Assembly (NCBI RefSeq): GCF_016903815.1
Contig: NZ_CP069972.1
Origin: Escherichia coli
GTDB lineage: Bacteria > Pseudomonadota > Gammaproteobacteria > Enterobacterales > Enterobacteriaceae
DNA: 64,000 nucleotides
Direction: 5' to 3' (one strand)
Below the pieces are notes generated by a model. That model made no database searches. It was not told the DNA's origin and was given only the letters and a program-made list of their open reading frames with translations. A program made the position numbers and the translations under genes. Below are positions 49,788 to 54,989 of this stretch, piece by piece. How positions within the stretch are numbered: the first letter of the stretch is position 1; each line of letters opens with the position of its first letter.

Positions 49788-50321
49788 GTGAATATAGAAC
49801 ACCTGAATAACCGGAACTGGTATCTTGCGCAATATAATACAGCCGGCAAAAACAGAGAATCTTTATTCTCATGGCTGAATGAGCAAAACGTCGTACCATG
49901 GACTCCATTAATAACAAGAAAGATAAGACGGGCAGACTCCAGGTGCTGTTACCGTGAAAGAATATTCGCTATTTTTCCAGGGTACTTTTTTATTCTGGCT
50001 AATTTTGACATTCACCCAGTATCAGCATTACGTCGACATAGCGCCTTCATTGATTTCGTGAAGTTTGGCGGTGAAATAAAACCCGTCAATAAAGATATTG
50101 TTGATGGATTAATGAAGATTTACCCGGACCCTGTGCTAAATCCGGGAGCCAGGGAAGAGCTGAATGCGGCTTCCAGCATATGGCTGACAAAAGCACAATA
50201 TCAGTATCTCCTCAGAATGGAAAATACTCTCCAGCCTGAGTCGAGGATATCCCTGCTCCTGGAACTGGTATCAAATGCCGAACATCACGGCTTTATGGAG
50301 CGCCTTGTAAACATCCCATAG
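49788..50321 (+). CDS. NusG/RfaH-family transcription antiterminator paralog (TraB-like)
   Basis: N-terminal NWYLAQY... resembles RfaH WYLLYCK; the track ORF starts at TTG 49767; GTG 49788 has an SD; terminator at 50331-50357. Confidence 0.5.
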   Translation: MNIEHLNNRNWYLAQYNTAGKNRESLFSWLNEQNVVPWTPLITRKIRRADSRCCYRERIFAIFPGYFFILANFDIHPVSALRRHSAFIDFVKFGGEIKPVNKDIVDGLMKIYPDPVLNPGAREELNAASSIWLTKAQYQYLLRMENTLQPESRISLLLELVSNAEHHGFMERLVNIP

Positions 50322-50574
50322 CCAGTATTTCCCGGCCTTCGGGCCGGGCTTTTTTCAATTCCAGAGAATATTCCGGAGTGAAGCCTGCACGAAGCCATCC
50401 CCACCATGGACTCCCCCTGTCTTTTGATGGAACCGTGTATTTCTTAATGGCGAAAGAAATAAAAGGCTTCACCCCAGAGTATTGATTCGTTTTATCAAAG
50501 GCCGGCCCGTGCCATCACGTGTGGCGGAGAGAACGGATACCGGTCTTCTTTTCATCTCACAGTAGGACATTCGC

Positions 50575-51258
50575 ATGACCACGACAGAACATCCCGTGCG
50601 CCAGTTGCTCTGGTGTGCACTGAATGCCCTGAAAACGGCACAGGAAAACCACAATATAACCAGTGAAACCGGATTACGGCATTACCTGCTTGAATGGCTT
50701 TCTGGTGCCAGCAGACATCCTGAGTTCCGTAGTCTCCCTGGCGAAATCATGGCGTTAAAAGCATTGACCGAAAAAGATCGCAATATTCCCATCATCGGAA
50801 CGCTGAATACGCTCTTTCTCAGCTCTGCCACTGTCGGGGAATGTCCGTTGTTTCGTTTTCGGGCTGCACTGGGTAAATTACAGAAAGCAGGCTGGCGCAC
50901 ATATGTCTGCCCATGGCCTGAGAGGGTGTTCAATGAATCCATTGAACGGGCCTGTTCCGGGAAACGTCATCTGCTACAACTAAGTCGCACCGAAGAGTGT
51001 TTTCTACCGACAGGCGATATGAGGGCACCAGTTACGTTGCAGCTGATCACTCCACTACACCGCAAAACTATGCAGCTTCTGGAAACGGCAGAGTTAATAT
51101 TCTCCGACGAAGGATTTCAGGTGGTGAGAGGATACGAACATCAATTCGGGATCGAACGCAGAGAAACCCTCTTTCACACCCTATTTATCGGGCTGCCCAG
51201 CCTGCCAGAAGATGTCTGGGGTGCAACACAGGAGCAGACGACTATCACATTACACTGA
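50575..51258 (+). CDS. Hypothetical regulator (227 aa), TraC-like by position
   Basis: SD AGGA; located between the NusG-like gene and pilI. Confidence 0.4.
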   Translation: MTTTEHPVRQLLWCALNALKTAQENHNITSETGLRHYLLEWLSGASRHPEFRSLPGEIMALKALTEKDRNIPIIGTLNTLFLSSATVGECPLFRFRAALGKLQKAGWRTYVCPWPERVFNESIERACSGKRHLLQLSRTEECFLPTGDMRAPVTLQLITPLHRKTMQLLETAELIFSDEGFQVVRGYEHQFGIERRETLFHTLFIGLPSLPEDVWGATQEQTTITLH

Positions 51259-51269
51259 GGATGTGTAAT

Positions 51270-51390
51270 CCCCGGCATACCCCGTTTCCAGTCTTCGCAG
51301 CCTGTACCACCCTTCCTGCCGTTTCCGACATTCTTTCTGTCACTACTCGCTTGTGCCATTTTTTCGCAAGCGGCCCCCATCGACATGACG
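51270..51390 (+). repeat. About 100-bp direct repeat, copy 1 (upstream of pilI)
   Basis: CCGTTTCCxGTCTTCGCAGCCTGTACCxCCCTTCCTGCCGTTTCCGACATTCTTTCTGTCACTACTCGCTTGTGCCxTTTTTTCGCAA, near-identical to 51985-52095. Confidence 0.6.
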
Positions 51391-51430
51391 GTGCGAGTCT
51401 TTCTTTTTACCCTGAGAGGAAATTAACAGC

Positions 51431-51982
51431 ATGAAAAAACAACCACTACTCTGGATGACGATAGCCGCCGCACTGCTGTCCGGCTGCACAGGCCACAGGG
51501 AACATCACCCGCAGGTGACATTCACGGTCGATACCGTGCGAACAGACACAACGGCCAGCAACCCAATCTGCCTGGCGGAAAAATACGGAAGCCTTCTTAA
51601 TGAGCGCCATCCGGACCTGTTTGCCGGTGCTCAGGGGAGTATTTCACGCAGTGCATTTTTTAATGACAGCCTGACGCTGACACCTGAAACGCTCCACGGG
51701 ATGATACAGAATACGCCCTGTGTTGAATCACTGGTAACGTCCGTAGGTCCGGATACCTTCACTGCAGATGTCTCTCCCGGTGTCAGAATGCAGGTATCAC
51801 CGGATATTCACGGTGCGCCCGGAAATATCACTCTGCGACTCTCGACCACAGACCAGAAACGAAAACAGACTGTTGAACAAAGCATTTCTCTCAGACCGGA
51901 ACAGTCCCTTGTCGTGAATGGATTCACCGGAGACGGAGCTGGCGAAAAGCGCGTCGTTCTCATCACACCTCACGTGCGTTAA
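51431..51982 (+). CDS. Lipoprotein (183 aa), PilI-like by position
   Basis: Signal peptide with lipobox LLSGC; first gene of the pil cluster. Confidence 0.45.
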   Translation: MKKQPLLWMTIAAALLSGCTGHREHHPQVTFTVDTVRTDTTASNPICLAEKYGSLLNERHPDLFAGAQGSISRSAFFNDSLTLTPETLHGMIQNTPCVESLVTSVGPDTFTADVSPGVRMQVSPDIHGAPGNITLRLSTTDQKRKQTVEQSISLRPEQSLVVNGFTGDGAGEKRVVLITPHVR

Positions 51983-51984
51983 TT

Positions 51985-52095
51985 CCCAACACAACCCGTT
52001 TCCCGTCTTCGCAGCCTGTACCGCCCTTCCTGCCGTTTCCGACATTCTTTCTGTCACTACTCGCTTGTGCCGTTTTTTCGCAACCGGTACGTGCA
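51985..52095 (+). repeat. About 100-bp direct repeat, copy 2 (upstream of pilJ-like gene)
   Basis: See copy 1. Confidence 0.6.
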
Positions 52096-52143
52096 GTTAT
52101 GACGGTACAGCTGCTTCTTTTCCCGTTCCGGAAGGAGTCTTTG

Positions 52144-52398
52144 ATGCCACAGCAACATCCTGGACGACTGCAAATACTGGTCGTCGACGCACACTGCAAA
52201 CGCAGGCTGTTTTCAACGAAAACACCGACAGACCCCGATGAGCTTGCCCGACGTTTCTGCACGCCGGATAACTGTCTCGTGGTGGTACTACGCGACAACC
52301 GATTTCTGTTCCGACTGGAGCGTGCTCCCGGCAGCCACTGCCGCTGGCACAAGGGCAGCAGCTCCCGCCATCAGCATCTACAGGACTGGCTGTCGTAA
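52144..52398 (+). CDS. Small protein (84 aa), PilJ-like by position
   Basis: ATG at 52144 with SD GGAG. Confidence 0.35.
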   Translation: MPQQHPGRLQILVVDAHCKRRLFSTKTPTDPDELARRFCTPDNCLVVVLRDNRFLFRLERAPGSHCRWHKGSSSRHQHLQDWLS

Positions 52399-52564
52399 AC
52401 ACAACAAAAACAAAAGACCTCGTCAAAACAGGTGGGGGCCGTGTTCTTTTTAGTTAAATTAACCATCGCGATTGCGATTGTCTGTGTACACCTTTTAACG
52501 ATTTTAATTTAGCCGTTTGTTGCCATCTTTATTACCTCTCTCCCTTTTATCATGGAGATTAACG

Positions 52565-52861
52565 ATGTTTACCATGTTCTTTCTAGTTAAATTAACCATC
52601 GCGATTGTGATTGTCTGTGGAATCCTTTCTCCGATTTTAGTTTCACCACATAACAAACTGTCCACACTTTTTTGGAAGATACCAAACGCGTTCTGGATTT
52701 TCCTGATTTGCATATACTTTGCAATCGCCATGGCGGTGTTAATAGAAAGCAGTGAACAGACACGCATCCGCCGCCAACAATATTTCCAACAGTGCGAAGT
52801 GCCAAATGAGACACATAAAAATGTGGTGATAGAAAACAGTATTAAAAGTCAACTAATATGA
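52565..52861 (+). CDS. Small membrane protein (98 aa)
   Basis: SD GGAGA; two TM helices; its first about 50 nt are duplicated at 52441-52512. Confidence 0.4.
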   Translation: MFTMFFLVKLTIAIVIVCGILSPILVSPHNKLSTLFWKIPNAFWIFLICIYFAIAMAVLIESSEQTRIRRQQYFQQCEVPNETHKNVVIENSIKSQLI

Positions 52862-53451
52862 AAAATAATAACGTACCATTATATCTATGGTTGCTTTGGT
52901 GTACGCTTTGTCTGTACATCACTACCCCATGGCAATACTTACGTTATCCATACACTGACAACTTATCATTGCCTTATATGTTATATTTCTGTGTGGTGGT
53001 TGTGATTTGCATTTTCCCACTACTTTTCAGATGTGTACTTCTTATTGTAAGGTCTGCATCTAAATACGACTTCACATTCTTTGTGAAGAAGAAAAAGGGA
53101 AGCAAGAAATCAACTATACATCTTAGCCCCTATGCTGACACACGTTGCCCGAAGTCAATGAGGAAACACTGGGATGTATTGCTTTCTCTGATATCAAAAG
53201 CAATTAATAATGATGAAATCATTGTCATGCATTCACATCTCTTTACTCCAGCAAGAATAAATAAACTTATAAAGAGACTGGAATCTTATGATTTGAGTTT
53301 TTCAGTTATTACATACCCACGGAAAACAAGTCTGTACGAAAAATTATCAATTCCTTTTATATATCTCTTATTTCAGTGGTCTTTCCCGCATTTGCATTCG
53401 GACGGAATGACAGTCGTCATTCGTCCTCTCCAGCCGCCTCACACCAATTAA
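52858..53451 (+). CDS. Membrane protein (197 aa), PilK-like by position
   Basis: ATGA overlap with upstream stop; hydrophobic N-terminal half. Confidence 0.4.
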   Translation: MKNNNVPLYLWLLWCTLCLYITTPWQYLRYPYTDNLSLPYMLYFCVVVVICIFPLLFRCVLLIVRSASKYDFTFFVKKKKGSKKSTIHLSPYADTRCPKSMRKHWDVLLSLISKAINNDEIIVMHSHLFTPARINKLIKRLESYDLSFSVITYPRKTSLYEKLSIPFIYLLFQWSFPHLHSDGMTVVIRPLQPPHTN

Positions 53452-53484
53452 CAAACACGTATATACGAACACGGAGTCTCCGTT

Positions 53485-54552
53485 ATGAAAAAAAACTGTC
53501 TGACACTTATACTGCCGTCATTATTGTCCGGCTGTGCCGGAATTTCCGGCAGCAATAACGTGGCACCATCAGATACGCCTGCTCTGGTTTTTGTTGACGG
53601 ACAAATCAGTGAAAGTGCTGGCGTTCTGGCACTTACGCAACAACGTCTTTCTCCACCTAAAATAACTCCCCCCCCGAGAGTCAGCGTGCCAGAGACAGTA
53701 AAAACAGCACAGCCTGTTAGCGAATCCCGACCGTTACCTTCACCAACAATAAGTCAGAATTTCTCCCGGTTAATCATTACAGGCAAGCCTGGTAGCGCCC
53801 CTGTAACACTATCGCCGACGGCCCGTAACCGGACCGTCAGTCAGTGGATAAAAACATTACTACCGGAAGGATGGAAATTCAGACAAGAGAATGCAGCCAC
53901 GCCCAAGCTGAATACCAAACTGGTTTCATGGTCTGCCAATGATCAGTGGACCCGTTCTCTGAACCGGTTGCTGGAAGAACAACACCTATGGGGCCATCTG
54001 GACTGGGATAATAAAACGTTGACCGTCACAACATCAGCTGCTGCACCGGCACAGGACACGGCAACCACTATCTCGCCAGCAGCCATGGTAACCACATCCA
54101 CTTCCCCTGAATCTCCAACAACAGCAAATAGCCAGAACAAACCACGAAATCCATTCAGAGGAAACAGCGTATCTTCGTCAACCCCCGCCGCCACCCCAAC
54201 TCCAACCGGCTCCACAGTCAAGTCTATCCCGCTCATGACCGGGACGCCTGTCAAACCGGTATCTCAGGGTAAAGAGTGGCGTGCGCCGGCAGGCACCACA
54301 TTAAGAGAGAACATTATTAAGTGGGCAGAAGAAACAAAATGCGAAAGCATGGCATCAACGCACTGGATGGTCATATGGCCACTTTCTGTAACCGATTACC
54401 GTCTGGATGCGCCTTTAATGTTCCGGGGATCATTTGAATCAGCCATGGAGCAGGTATTTGAGTTATATCGGACTGCGCAAAAACCTTTATACGCACAGGC
54501 TTCTCGCATGCAGTGCATCATTACAGTTTCTGATACAAGGGATGGTCGCTAA
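53485..54552 (+). CDS. pilL: Thin-pilus lipoprotein PilL (355 aa)
   Basis: Lipobox LLSGCAG; Pro/Thr-rich linker; begins the conserved pilL-to-pilV order. Confidence 0.7.
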   Translation: MKKNCLTLILPSLLSGCAGISGSNNVAPSDTPALVFVDGQISESAGVLALTQQRLSPPKITPPPRVSVPETVKTAQPVSESRPLPSPTISQNFSRLIITGKPGSAPVTLSPTARNRTVSQWIKTLLPEGWKFRQENAATPKLNTKLVSWSANDQWTRSLNRLLEEQHLWGHLDWDNKTLTVTTSAAAPAQDTATTISPAAMVTTSTSPESPTTANSQNKPRNPFRGNSVSSSTPAATPTPTGSTVKSIPLMTGTPVKPVSQGKEWRAPAGTTLRENIIKWAEETKCESMASTHWMVIWPLSVTDYRLDAPLMFRGSFESAMEQVFELYRTAQKPLYAQASRMQCIITVSDTRDGR

Positions 54553-54989
54553 TGGGATGGCTGGTCATGGCCGTCGGCCTGACCATTCTGATTATCACTG
54601 GTAGCTACCAGAATCAGAAGATGTCTGAAACCACAAACGCCCAGCAATATGCAAGTGCGTCTGTATGGGCAAGTCAGATACTAATGATTGCTAACAGAAT
54701 CAATGATATCAGATACGTATCAGGCCAGCAGGACGGAGTAATTTCCTCAGATAAACTGGCTCTCCCTGTCACTCCGGACTCCCGAATTAAACATCAGTTA
54801 CAACAGGGGCGTCTGTGGGTATGGATGCCTGAACAACCAGGACTTGTTGAAACTTTGCGTTCAAAAAGTCGTGGTTCTGCACTAATAGGGATCTTCCAAA
54901 ACGGGCAACTCACCTGGCTATCAGGAACTGCAACCGGTCTGACACCCCCGGCAGGCATTACTGCTGGTTCTGTCGTCTACGTTAACTAA
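54552..54989 (+). CDS. pilM: PilM (145 aa)
   Basis: N-terminal TM anchor; overlaps pilL stop. Confidence 0.65.
   Translation: MGWLVMAVGLTILIITGSYQNQKMSETTNAQQYASASVWASQILMIANRINDIRYVSGQQDGVISSDKLALPVTPDSRIKHQLQQGRLWVWMPEQPGLVETLRSKSRGSALIGIFQNGQLTWLSGTATGLTPPAGITAGSVVYVN

Follow-up and report, generated by a model that had tools for sequence, protein, structure and literature searches.

The thin-pilus operon of plasmid R64, which runs from pilI to pilV, is said to have been described by Kim and Komano in 1997 and by Yoshida and co-workers in 1999. The title of the latter work reportedly states that 'Twelve pil genes are required' (of 14), and pilI and pilJ are said to be not required. In R64, pilJ is a single-copy gene of 150 aa that starts 42 nt after pilI behind an AGGAGG Shine-Dalgarno (SD) sequence, whereas the ColIb-type gene encodes 98 aa; the differences between the two types are mainly amino-acid replacements. 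For pil gene sets of the ColIb-P9 type, a '60 bp insert, not in R64' has been described adjacent to pilJ, with a tandem repeat of 9 bp that is polymorphic; in these sets, trcD takes the place of traD (PMC8004404). Another system that is relevant here is found in IncI2 plasmids (e.g., NZ_CP024142), where an unannotated membrane ORF of 99 codons, orf99, lies between an SPFH gene and nfeD. Two intact genes meet in translational coupling at the orf99/nfeD junction, with the stop codon of orf99 being followed by 2 nt and then by the nfeD ATG.

The DNA analysed here, a stretch of 64,000 nt from Escherichia coli (contig NZ_CP069972.1, assembly GCF_016903815.1; hereafter the window), is an IncI1 plasmid of the ColIb-P9 type with its thin-pilus (type IVb) operon. 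Many E. coli IncI1 plasmids, such as NZ_CP028485.1, match region 51400-54600 at 100% identity, and gene coordinates were mapped from the annotation of such identical plasmids. All genes of this region lie on the plus strand, in the order traC (50575-51258), trcD of ColIb-P9 (an ORF for a 183-aa lipoprotein, 51431-51982), pilI (84 aa, 52144-52398, annotated as PilI and matching Pfam PF10623 PilI with E = 2.9e-32), pilJ (98 aa, 52565-52861), pilK (52858-53451) and pilL (53485-54552), followed by pilM, pilN and the rest of the operon. The order from traC to pilN is the same in the identical annotated plasmids and in ColIb-P9 (NC_002122), which shares the layout and is identical to the window over the entire two-copy segment described below; the two pilJ genes are separated by a single nucleotide difference, in a Cys/Tyr codon. 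In the identical plasmids, pilJ is annotated as pilJ or as a hypothetical protein. It is intact, with two predicted transmembrane segments, and it occupies the place of IncI1 PilJ between pilI and pilK in the traABC(D)-pilI-V transfer region. It is homologous to R64-type pilJ, which has the same neighbors and the same N-terminal two-transmembrane region, and with which it can be aligned over 92 codons with 39 nucleotide differences.

A preliminary description of this DNA had reported about 50 nt at 52441-52500 that recur at 52575-52630, and had taken them for the duplicated 5' end of a small membrane-protein gene. A repeat search of the window showed that the repeat is real and longer than first noted, spanning 72 nt at 52439-52510 and 52572-52643, with 62/72 positions (86%) identical, a start-to-start distance of 133 nt and a longest perfect identity between the copies of 24 nt. 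A core of 44 nt, GTTCTTTTTAGTTAAATTAACCATCGCGATTGCGATTGTCTGTG, occurs without mismatches at 52443-52486 and with 2 mismatches at 52576-52619, and no match to it was found in 100 dinucleotide-preserving shuffles of the window. The duplicated gene is pilJ, as the downstream copy covers codons 3-27 of this gene on the plus strand, while the upstream copy sits within the 166-nt spacer between pilI and pilJ. This upstream copy remains open as an ORF of 23 codons (the stub ORF, plus strand, 52441-52512) that extends from a GTG at 52441 to a TAG at 52510-52512 and is headed by the SD sequence AGGTGGGGG at 52430-52438. Its predicted translation, (M)FFLVKLTIAIAIVCVHLLTILI, has a mean hydropathy of 2.57, in agreement with the 23-aa hydrophobic peptide that had been envisaged for this copy.

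To place the two copies, the pilI-pilK interval was taken from a spread of IncI plasmids and aligned. A single-copy pilJ is present in R64 itself (L027, NC_005014), in the R64-type plasmids L006 and L026, and in the ColIb-like plasmids L004, L024 and L025, relative to which the window carries 133 nt extra. In these plasmids pilJ starts 33-42 nt past pilI, at the site of the upstream copy of the window, and its SD is AGGTGGGGG with a GTG start in the ColIb-like plasmids and AGGAGGGGA with an ATG start in the R64 type. Since the single-copy relatives begin pilJ at the position of the upstream copy, and with its SD, the upstream copy is the ancestral pilJ start together with the ancestral ribosome-binding site, and the downstream, functional copy is the one that has gained a new start. 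The duplication itself thus stands as first described, whereas the roles given to the copies are reversed, the upstream one being the original start and the downstream one having the new start. The annotated pilJ begins at ATG 52565 with Met-Phe-Thr, which derives from the sequence of the junction, and the repeat follows from codon 4.

The preliminary description had further proposed a recent tandem duplication. If replication slippage had recently produced a simple tandem duplication, and the spacer were a diverged part of the duplicated unit, two direct copies 133 nt apart in one gene region would be accounted for. However, in such a 133-nt unit the 61-nt spacer (52511-52571) should look like the DNA just past the downstream copy (52644-52704). 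The two have no similarity, and the repetition extends over only 72 of the 133 nt, so that a tandem arrangement is contradicted. Instead, the intervening DNA is homologous to the IncI2 orf99/nfeD junction, at 78-87% identity and with a conserved reading frame. Nor is the structure recent, given that it is common to ColIb-P9 and hundreds of other plasmids and that the copies differ at 10/72 positions. In light of these observations, slippage is a highly improbable origin.

The IncI2 homology of the spacer was recovered at both the nucleotide and the protein level. In blastn, window positions 52503-52569 matched IncI2 plasmids with 78.5% identity (E = 1e-7 to 6e-8 against 7.3 Gb), and the spacer, with nothing else from the query, was matched in 381 IncI2 plasmids. 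In the reverse direction, a tblastn search of orf99 against the window returned the spacer as its sole match (E = 3e-4). The homologous segment, 52509-52567 on the plus strand, corresponds to the 3' end of the 99-codon IncI2 ORF, the 2 nt after it and the start codon of nfeD, the full IncI2 counterpart being the last 20 codons of orf99. In the window it holds 17 codons of the orf99 end after a loss of 9 nt, reading LAVCCHLYYLSPFYHGD* with the stop TAA at 52560-52562, and it contributes both the new SD, GGAG at 52554-52557, and the new pilJ ATG at 52565. The likeness to the IncI2 junction includes the reading frame, the terminal ...FYHGD*, the GGAG, its spacing and the start codon. The difference lies in what surrounds these elements, as the window has only the last 17-20 codons of the upstream gene, with no start, and pilJ, a gene unrelated to nfeD, follows downstream.

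The homology runs a few codons past the start codon, with ATG TTT ACC ATG TTC TTT CTA in the window against ATG TTA TGG TTT ACA CTG TTT CTT CTG in IncI2, and this prompted consideration of PilJ as an NfeD homolog. This idea was rejected, as the BLASTP match between R64-type PilJ and IncI2 NfeD had an E value of 0.052 and involved a non-equivalent region, and PilJ had no Pfam NfeD match. The likeness between PilJ and NfeD is limited to the ribosome-binding region and the first few codons, and exists at the DNA level only.

The spacer also occurs in a longer form. The window has a single unit of TCTTTATT(A), at 52526-52534 on the plus strand, while the unit is doubled, with 9 nt more, in most two-copy plasmids and in the IncI2 homolog. 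The form with the extra TCTTTATTT is 70 nt long and 59/68 (87%) identical to the IncI2 junction. It reads LAVCCHLYFLYYLSPFYHGD, as compared to LAVCYHLYYLYSLSAFYHGD in IncI2, in the same frame and with 20 codons plus a stop in both. This agreement in codon count and frame suggests that the longer form is the older one, and that one unit was lost in the form shared by ColIb-P9 and the window rather than gained elsewhere. A donor closer than 87% to the spacer was not found in scans of PLSDB, genomes or metagenomes. Specifically, a tblastn search of the 99-aa IncI2 ORF against all PLSDB plasmids returned only IncI2 alleles and the IncI1 spacer itself; a scan of genome contigs by shared 19-mer gave only 7 chance matches, in unrelated MAGs; and a metagenome scan anchored on the orf99/nfeD junction gave only the three known IncI2 alleles and one variant with orf99 deleted. 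Within the 64-kb window, no homolog of orf99, nfeD or the SPFH gene was found elsewhere.

The reverse polarity was also considered, in which the two-copy layout is ancestral and recombination between its repeats gave rise to the single-copy plasmids. The latter are shorter by exactly 133 nt, as this would produce, and a deletion of this kind apparently removed trcD between 108-nt repeats in L004, L008 and L009. Against this, the longest perfect identity between the pilJ copies is only 24 nt, the spacer is foreign in origin and the divergent R64 type is also single-copy. Furthermore, the window copies differ at three sites in the first ~80 nt, and at each of these every single-copy ColIb-like allele agrees with the R64 type (T, C, A), which indicates that such alleles are not simple crossover revertants of the known two-copy alleles; they remain R64-type beyond any possible crossover, where both known two-copy alleles are derived. 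An ancestral two-copy layout is very unlikely on this evidence, and the comparison of alleles shows the single copy to be the ancestral condition.

Taken together, the repeat is probably the scar of an illegitimate recombination that captured IncI2-like DNA and stranded the ancestral pilJ start as a stub. The ancestral layout, kept in R64 and in the single-copy ColIb-like plasmids, would have been pilI, a spacer of 33-42 nt, a strong SD and pilJ. A single complex, microhomology-mediated event in the ColIb-P9 lineage of IncI1 plasmids would then have added about 142 nt, now 133 nt, made up of some 60-70 nt of an IncI2-like orf99/nfeD junction and, after it, a repetition of the initial ~72 nt of pilJ. 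As a result, the original SD and GTG would have come to head the open stub of 23 codons ending at TAG 52510-52512. The full pilJ frame would have been kept downstream, with initiation at ATG 52565 by means of the captured nfeD-type GGAG and with Met-Phe-Thr added to the N-terminus. A later slippage deletion of 9 nt in the spacer would have given rise to the form found in ColIb-P9 and the window.

Template switching of the FoSTeS/MMBIR type yields rearrangements that combine duplication with insertion. The present locus resembles such cases in that a duplicated segment flanks an insert taken from a different template, each joint being marked by a short microhomology; here the mechanism is read from the product alone, and the joints are placed only approximately. 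For this locus, the preferred and most parsimonious route would be a replication template switch from about nt 72 of pilJ to an IncI2-like plasmid for ~75-85 nt, and then back to about nt 1 of pilJ, and the chances that this particular path was taken are roughly even. The left-hand joint lies at TTTAAT/ATT-TAG, and the right-hand joint would sit in a TGTT.TTCT microhomology with codons 1-4 of pilJ. Both microhomologies are approximate, because identity between the spacer and known IncI2 sequences is no higher than 78-87%. Insertion of a transposable element or MITE was rejected as a source of the extra DNA, which is bracketed by no inverted repeat, carries no transposase and has a flanking duplication of 72 nt, as compared to 2-14 bp for such elements.

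One segment does not follow from this scheme. Compared with single-copy L004, the upstream copy has 2 differences in its first 48 nt and 7 in the next 24, and the simple model does not explain the divergence of 52489-52510 from the ancestral allele. It may hint at a patchy junction, with a different parental allele as another possibility. Across 52489-52510, nucleotide identity is ~78% to pilJ and ~48% to orf99, figures which favor an origin in pilJ over derivation from orf99. In this 3' third of the upstream copy, however, 4/7 differences from ancestral pilJ coincide with IncI2 orf99 states, a coincidence that hints at a patchy junction.

In PLSDB, where structural classes were counted by the identity band of blastn matches, there are about 430 two-copy plasmids, about 46 single-copy ColIb-like plasmids and about 374 single-copy R64-like plasmids. 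Among the two-copy plasmids, 127 have the window/ColIb-P9 form and ~297 have the extra 9 nt. The comparison with related pil clusters that had been recommended at the outset thus found the duplication in many relatives. The presence of the same structure in ColIb-P9 and in the approximately 430 PLSDB plasmids, with copies that have diverged to 86% identity, contradicts the recent date first given to it, and the two-copy structure is an old and stable marker of a lineage rather than a recent event.

The published 60-bp insert is found at window positions 52511-52571, and TCTTTATTT of the spacer accounts for its 9-bp repeat, so that both the locus and the sequence are the same (PMC8004404). It was described there as a plain insert, with no mention of a duplicated pilJ 5' end, a stub ORF or a likeness to IncI2. 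A BLAST alignment in two HSPs would leave exactly 52511-52571 unaligned, and would thereby mask the duplication. The duplicated end, the stub and the likeness to IncI2 were likewise not found mentioned in the searchable literature. The polymorphism is nonetheless ordinary and already catalogued, and these three features are small refinements of it. It concerns the structure of a gene that can be dispensed with, in a family of plasmids that is very well known, and carries little weight for biology at large. It does allow IncI1 transfer regions to be typed cleanly by lineage, as single-copy, two-copy or two-copy plus 9 nt, and it explains the uneven RefSeq annotation of pilJ, which is called a hypothetical protein, left uncalled or replaced by an antisense ORF. 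In addition, the capture of a short IncI2-like sequence by an IncI1 operon illustrates how plasmid families that reside together can exchange DNA.

With regard to pilJ itself, several observations bear on its importance. L008 has lost the gene by deletion, L009 has it fused with pilI, and about half of IncI1 plasmids count as lacking it if the scoring relies on R64 references. Likewise, pilJ is absent from pEC_Bactec, which still conjugates (PMC2887853), and from pESBL, which also still conjugates. Between the ColIb and R64 types (window 52574-52849 against pilJ of L006/R64), pN/pS for pilJ is 2.46, with 3.8 synonymous and 35.2 nonsynonymous differences (one-sided P = 0.07 against neutrality), while the values for its neighbors are 0.17 for pilI, 0.31 for pilK, 0.07 for pilL and 0 for pilN. 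Synonymous divergence is also lower in pilJ (0.066) than in pilI (0.25) and pilK (0.19). These comparisons suggest that pilJ is dispensable and evolves without purifying selection, although a replacement-biased divergence with pN/pS of ~2.5 could also reflect diversifying selection on a small membrane protein. If pilJ is indeed dispensable and free of purifying selection, the rearrangement is most probably without important function, and it is most likely to be a neutral scar of microhomology-mediated recombination.

The gene downstream of pilJ is arranged differently in the two plasmid types. In the window, the pilK ATG overlaps the pilJ stop codon (ATGA, 52858-52861), and pilK has no SD, the predicted duplex with the anti-SD being only -0.4 kcal/mol; in the R64 type the two genes are ~50 nt apart. 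This arrangement suggests that pilK is translationally coupled to pilJ in plasmids of the ColIb type.

As the stub ORF kept the ancestral ribosome-binding site, its possible expression was also evaluated. The predicted SD:anti-SD duplex is -8.4 kcal/mol for the stub, -6.4 kcal/mol for the new pilJ start, the same value as for IncI2 nfeD, and -10.8 kcal/mol for R64 pilJ. A promoter and terminator scan, whose counts were at chance level, detected neither on the plus strand at the repeat site, and with no terminator between pilI and the stub or between the stub and pilJ, the stub ORF is probably translated. The ORF is intact, with its strong SD, in all but one of the sampled two-copy plasmids. 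Variation among the sampled two-copy alleles is very low and comprises one frameshift (L022, a 1-nt loss in a T-run), one replacement (TTA to TTT, the L023 class) and no synonymous change, with no evidence of constraint on the ORF.

Whether the stub serves as a functional small membrane protein or leader, such that the peptide or its translation modulates PilJ/PilK or the pilus and selection has kept the allele, is a separate question. Such a role would agree with an intact ORF whose SD is stronger than that of the new pilJ start, with its location inside an operon that has no terminator upstream of it, with the very hydrophobic nature of a peptide that copies PilJ transmembrane segment 1, and with the persistence of the structure in ~430 plasmids. 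Moreover, upstream translation could matter for a pilK that lacks an SD and overlaps the pilJ stop. However, the stub stop lies 52 nt upstream of the pilJ ATG, a distance without coupling geometry. Nor is the stub joined to the pilJ start by an RNA structure that is stable or out of the ordinary: for 52400-52600 the predicted minimum free energy is -28 kcal/mol, while shuffles average -32.6 (z = +1.16), making the fold less stable than shuffles. The 23-aa peptide has no Pfam match, and a search of Rfam over 50000-54000 gave nothing relevant, with only a chance-level SorX match elsewhere. The one frameshift and one replacement, set against no synonymous change, also speak against function, as does the absence of the stub from about half of the pilJ-bearing plasmids, in a setting where pilJ itself is dispensable. 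A selected role for the stub is consequently unlikely. The more specific proposal, that the stub is translated from the ancestral SD as a free PilJ transmembrane helix 1 which modulates PilJ or the thin-pilus machinery, or lowers PilJ/PilK output, is slightly less likely still. If the stub were active, the two-copy allele of the ColIb-P9 type would be a functional variant rather than a neutral scar, and a peptide both made and active would be a modest example of a small protein born from partial gene duplication.

Short hydrophobic ORFs with a good SD upstream of a gene are familiar from leader peptides and upstream ORFs, such as repY-repZ of IncI1, and from type I toxins such as Pnd/Hok, which occur on the same plasmids. 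The stub shares this outline, but unlike leader peptides and Pnd/Hok it shows no coupling geometry, conserved RNA structure, antisense RNA or toxin family, and it is the decapitated start of the gene downstream. A regulatory RNA, attenuator or leader peptide was rejected on the fold z score of +1.16, the lack of an Rfam family, the 52-nt gap from stop to start and the lack of a plus-strand promoter or terminator. Similarly, the small hydrophobic toxin of a type I toxin-antitoxin system was rejected, with no Pfam toxin family and no Rfam antisense RNA match in 50000-54000.

The annotation of this locus raises a further alternative, namely that the real gene is an 87-aa ORF on the minus strand (52504-52767), annotated by PGAP in some plasmids, and that the repeat is incidental. 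The antisense frame is free of stops across all of pilJ, a run of 114 codons in the window and of 162 codons in R64-type plasmids, and PGAP calls WP_159372940.1 in place of pilJ in L005 and L007; a weak promoter-like match also lies just upstream on the minus strand, at 52805-52777. Yet PGAP calls the plus-strand pilJ in other plasmids of the same sequence (e.g., L023), and the number of promoter-like matches is within chance, with 4 found against 1.9 +/- 1.5 expected. The antisense ORF has no family match, is oriented opposite to a unidirectional operon and has a pN/pS of 2.63, a non-coding-like value that matches that of pilJ because the two frames share third codon positions. An antisense gene as the true occupant of the locus is thus extremely improbable.

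Other rearrangements are found close to the repeat. A second pair of direct repeats, 108 nt long and 92% identical, flanks trcD at 51266-51373 and 51980-52087. Plasmids without trcD (L004, L008 and L009) carry one hybrid copy of this repeat, as would be expected from deletion of trcD by recombination between the repeats. In R64-type plasmids, a remnant of the trcD 3' end is retained downstream of traD. The TraD of R64 (L006, 130-696) matches PilK (window 52858-53451) in BLASTP with E = 1e-11 and 32% identity over 97 residues, a match that makes it a paralog of PilK, and the gene replacing trcD in R64-type plasmids is therefore a pilK-like duplicate. The pilJ region of individual plasmids has undergone changes of other kinds. 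An unrelated ISCro1, of the IS66 family, is inserted in the upstream pilJ copy of L007 (NZ_MW390513), around positions 1170-1240 of that locus. In L009 (1386-1760), a deletion fuses pilI to the 3' end of an R64-type pilJ, with a product of 124 aa, while L008 (1685-1810) shows a complete loss of pilJ.

In IncI2 plasmids, the unannotated 99-codon membrane ORF between the SPFH gene and nfeD lies at 2273-2572 of L010 (NZ_CP024142) and at 1501-1800 of L020 and L021. It occurs as two alleles of equal length with ~55% protein identity, is deleted in one metagenome contig (L034), and is probably a real gene that annotation has missed.
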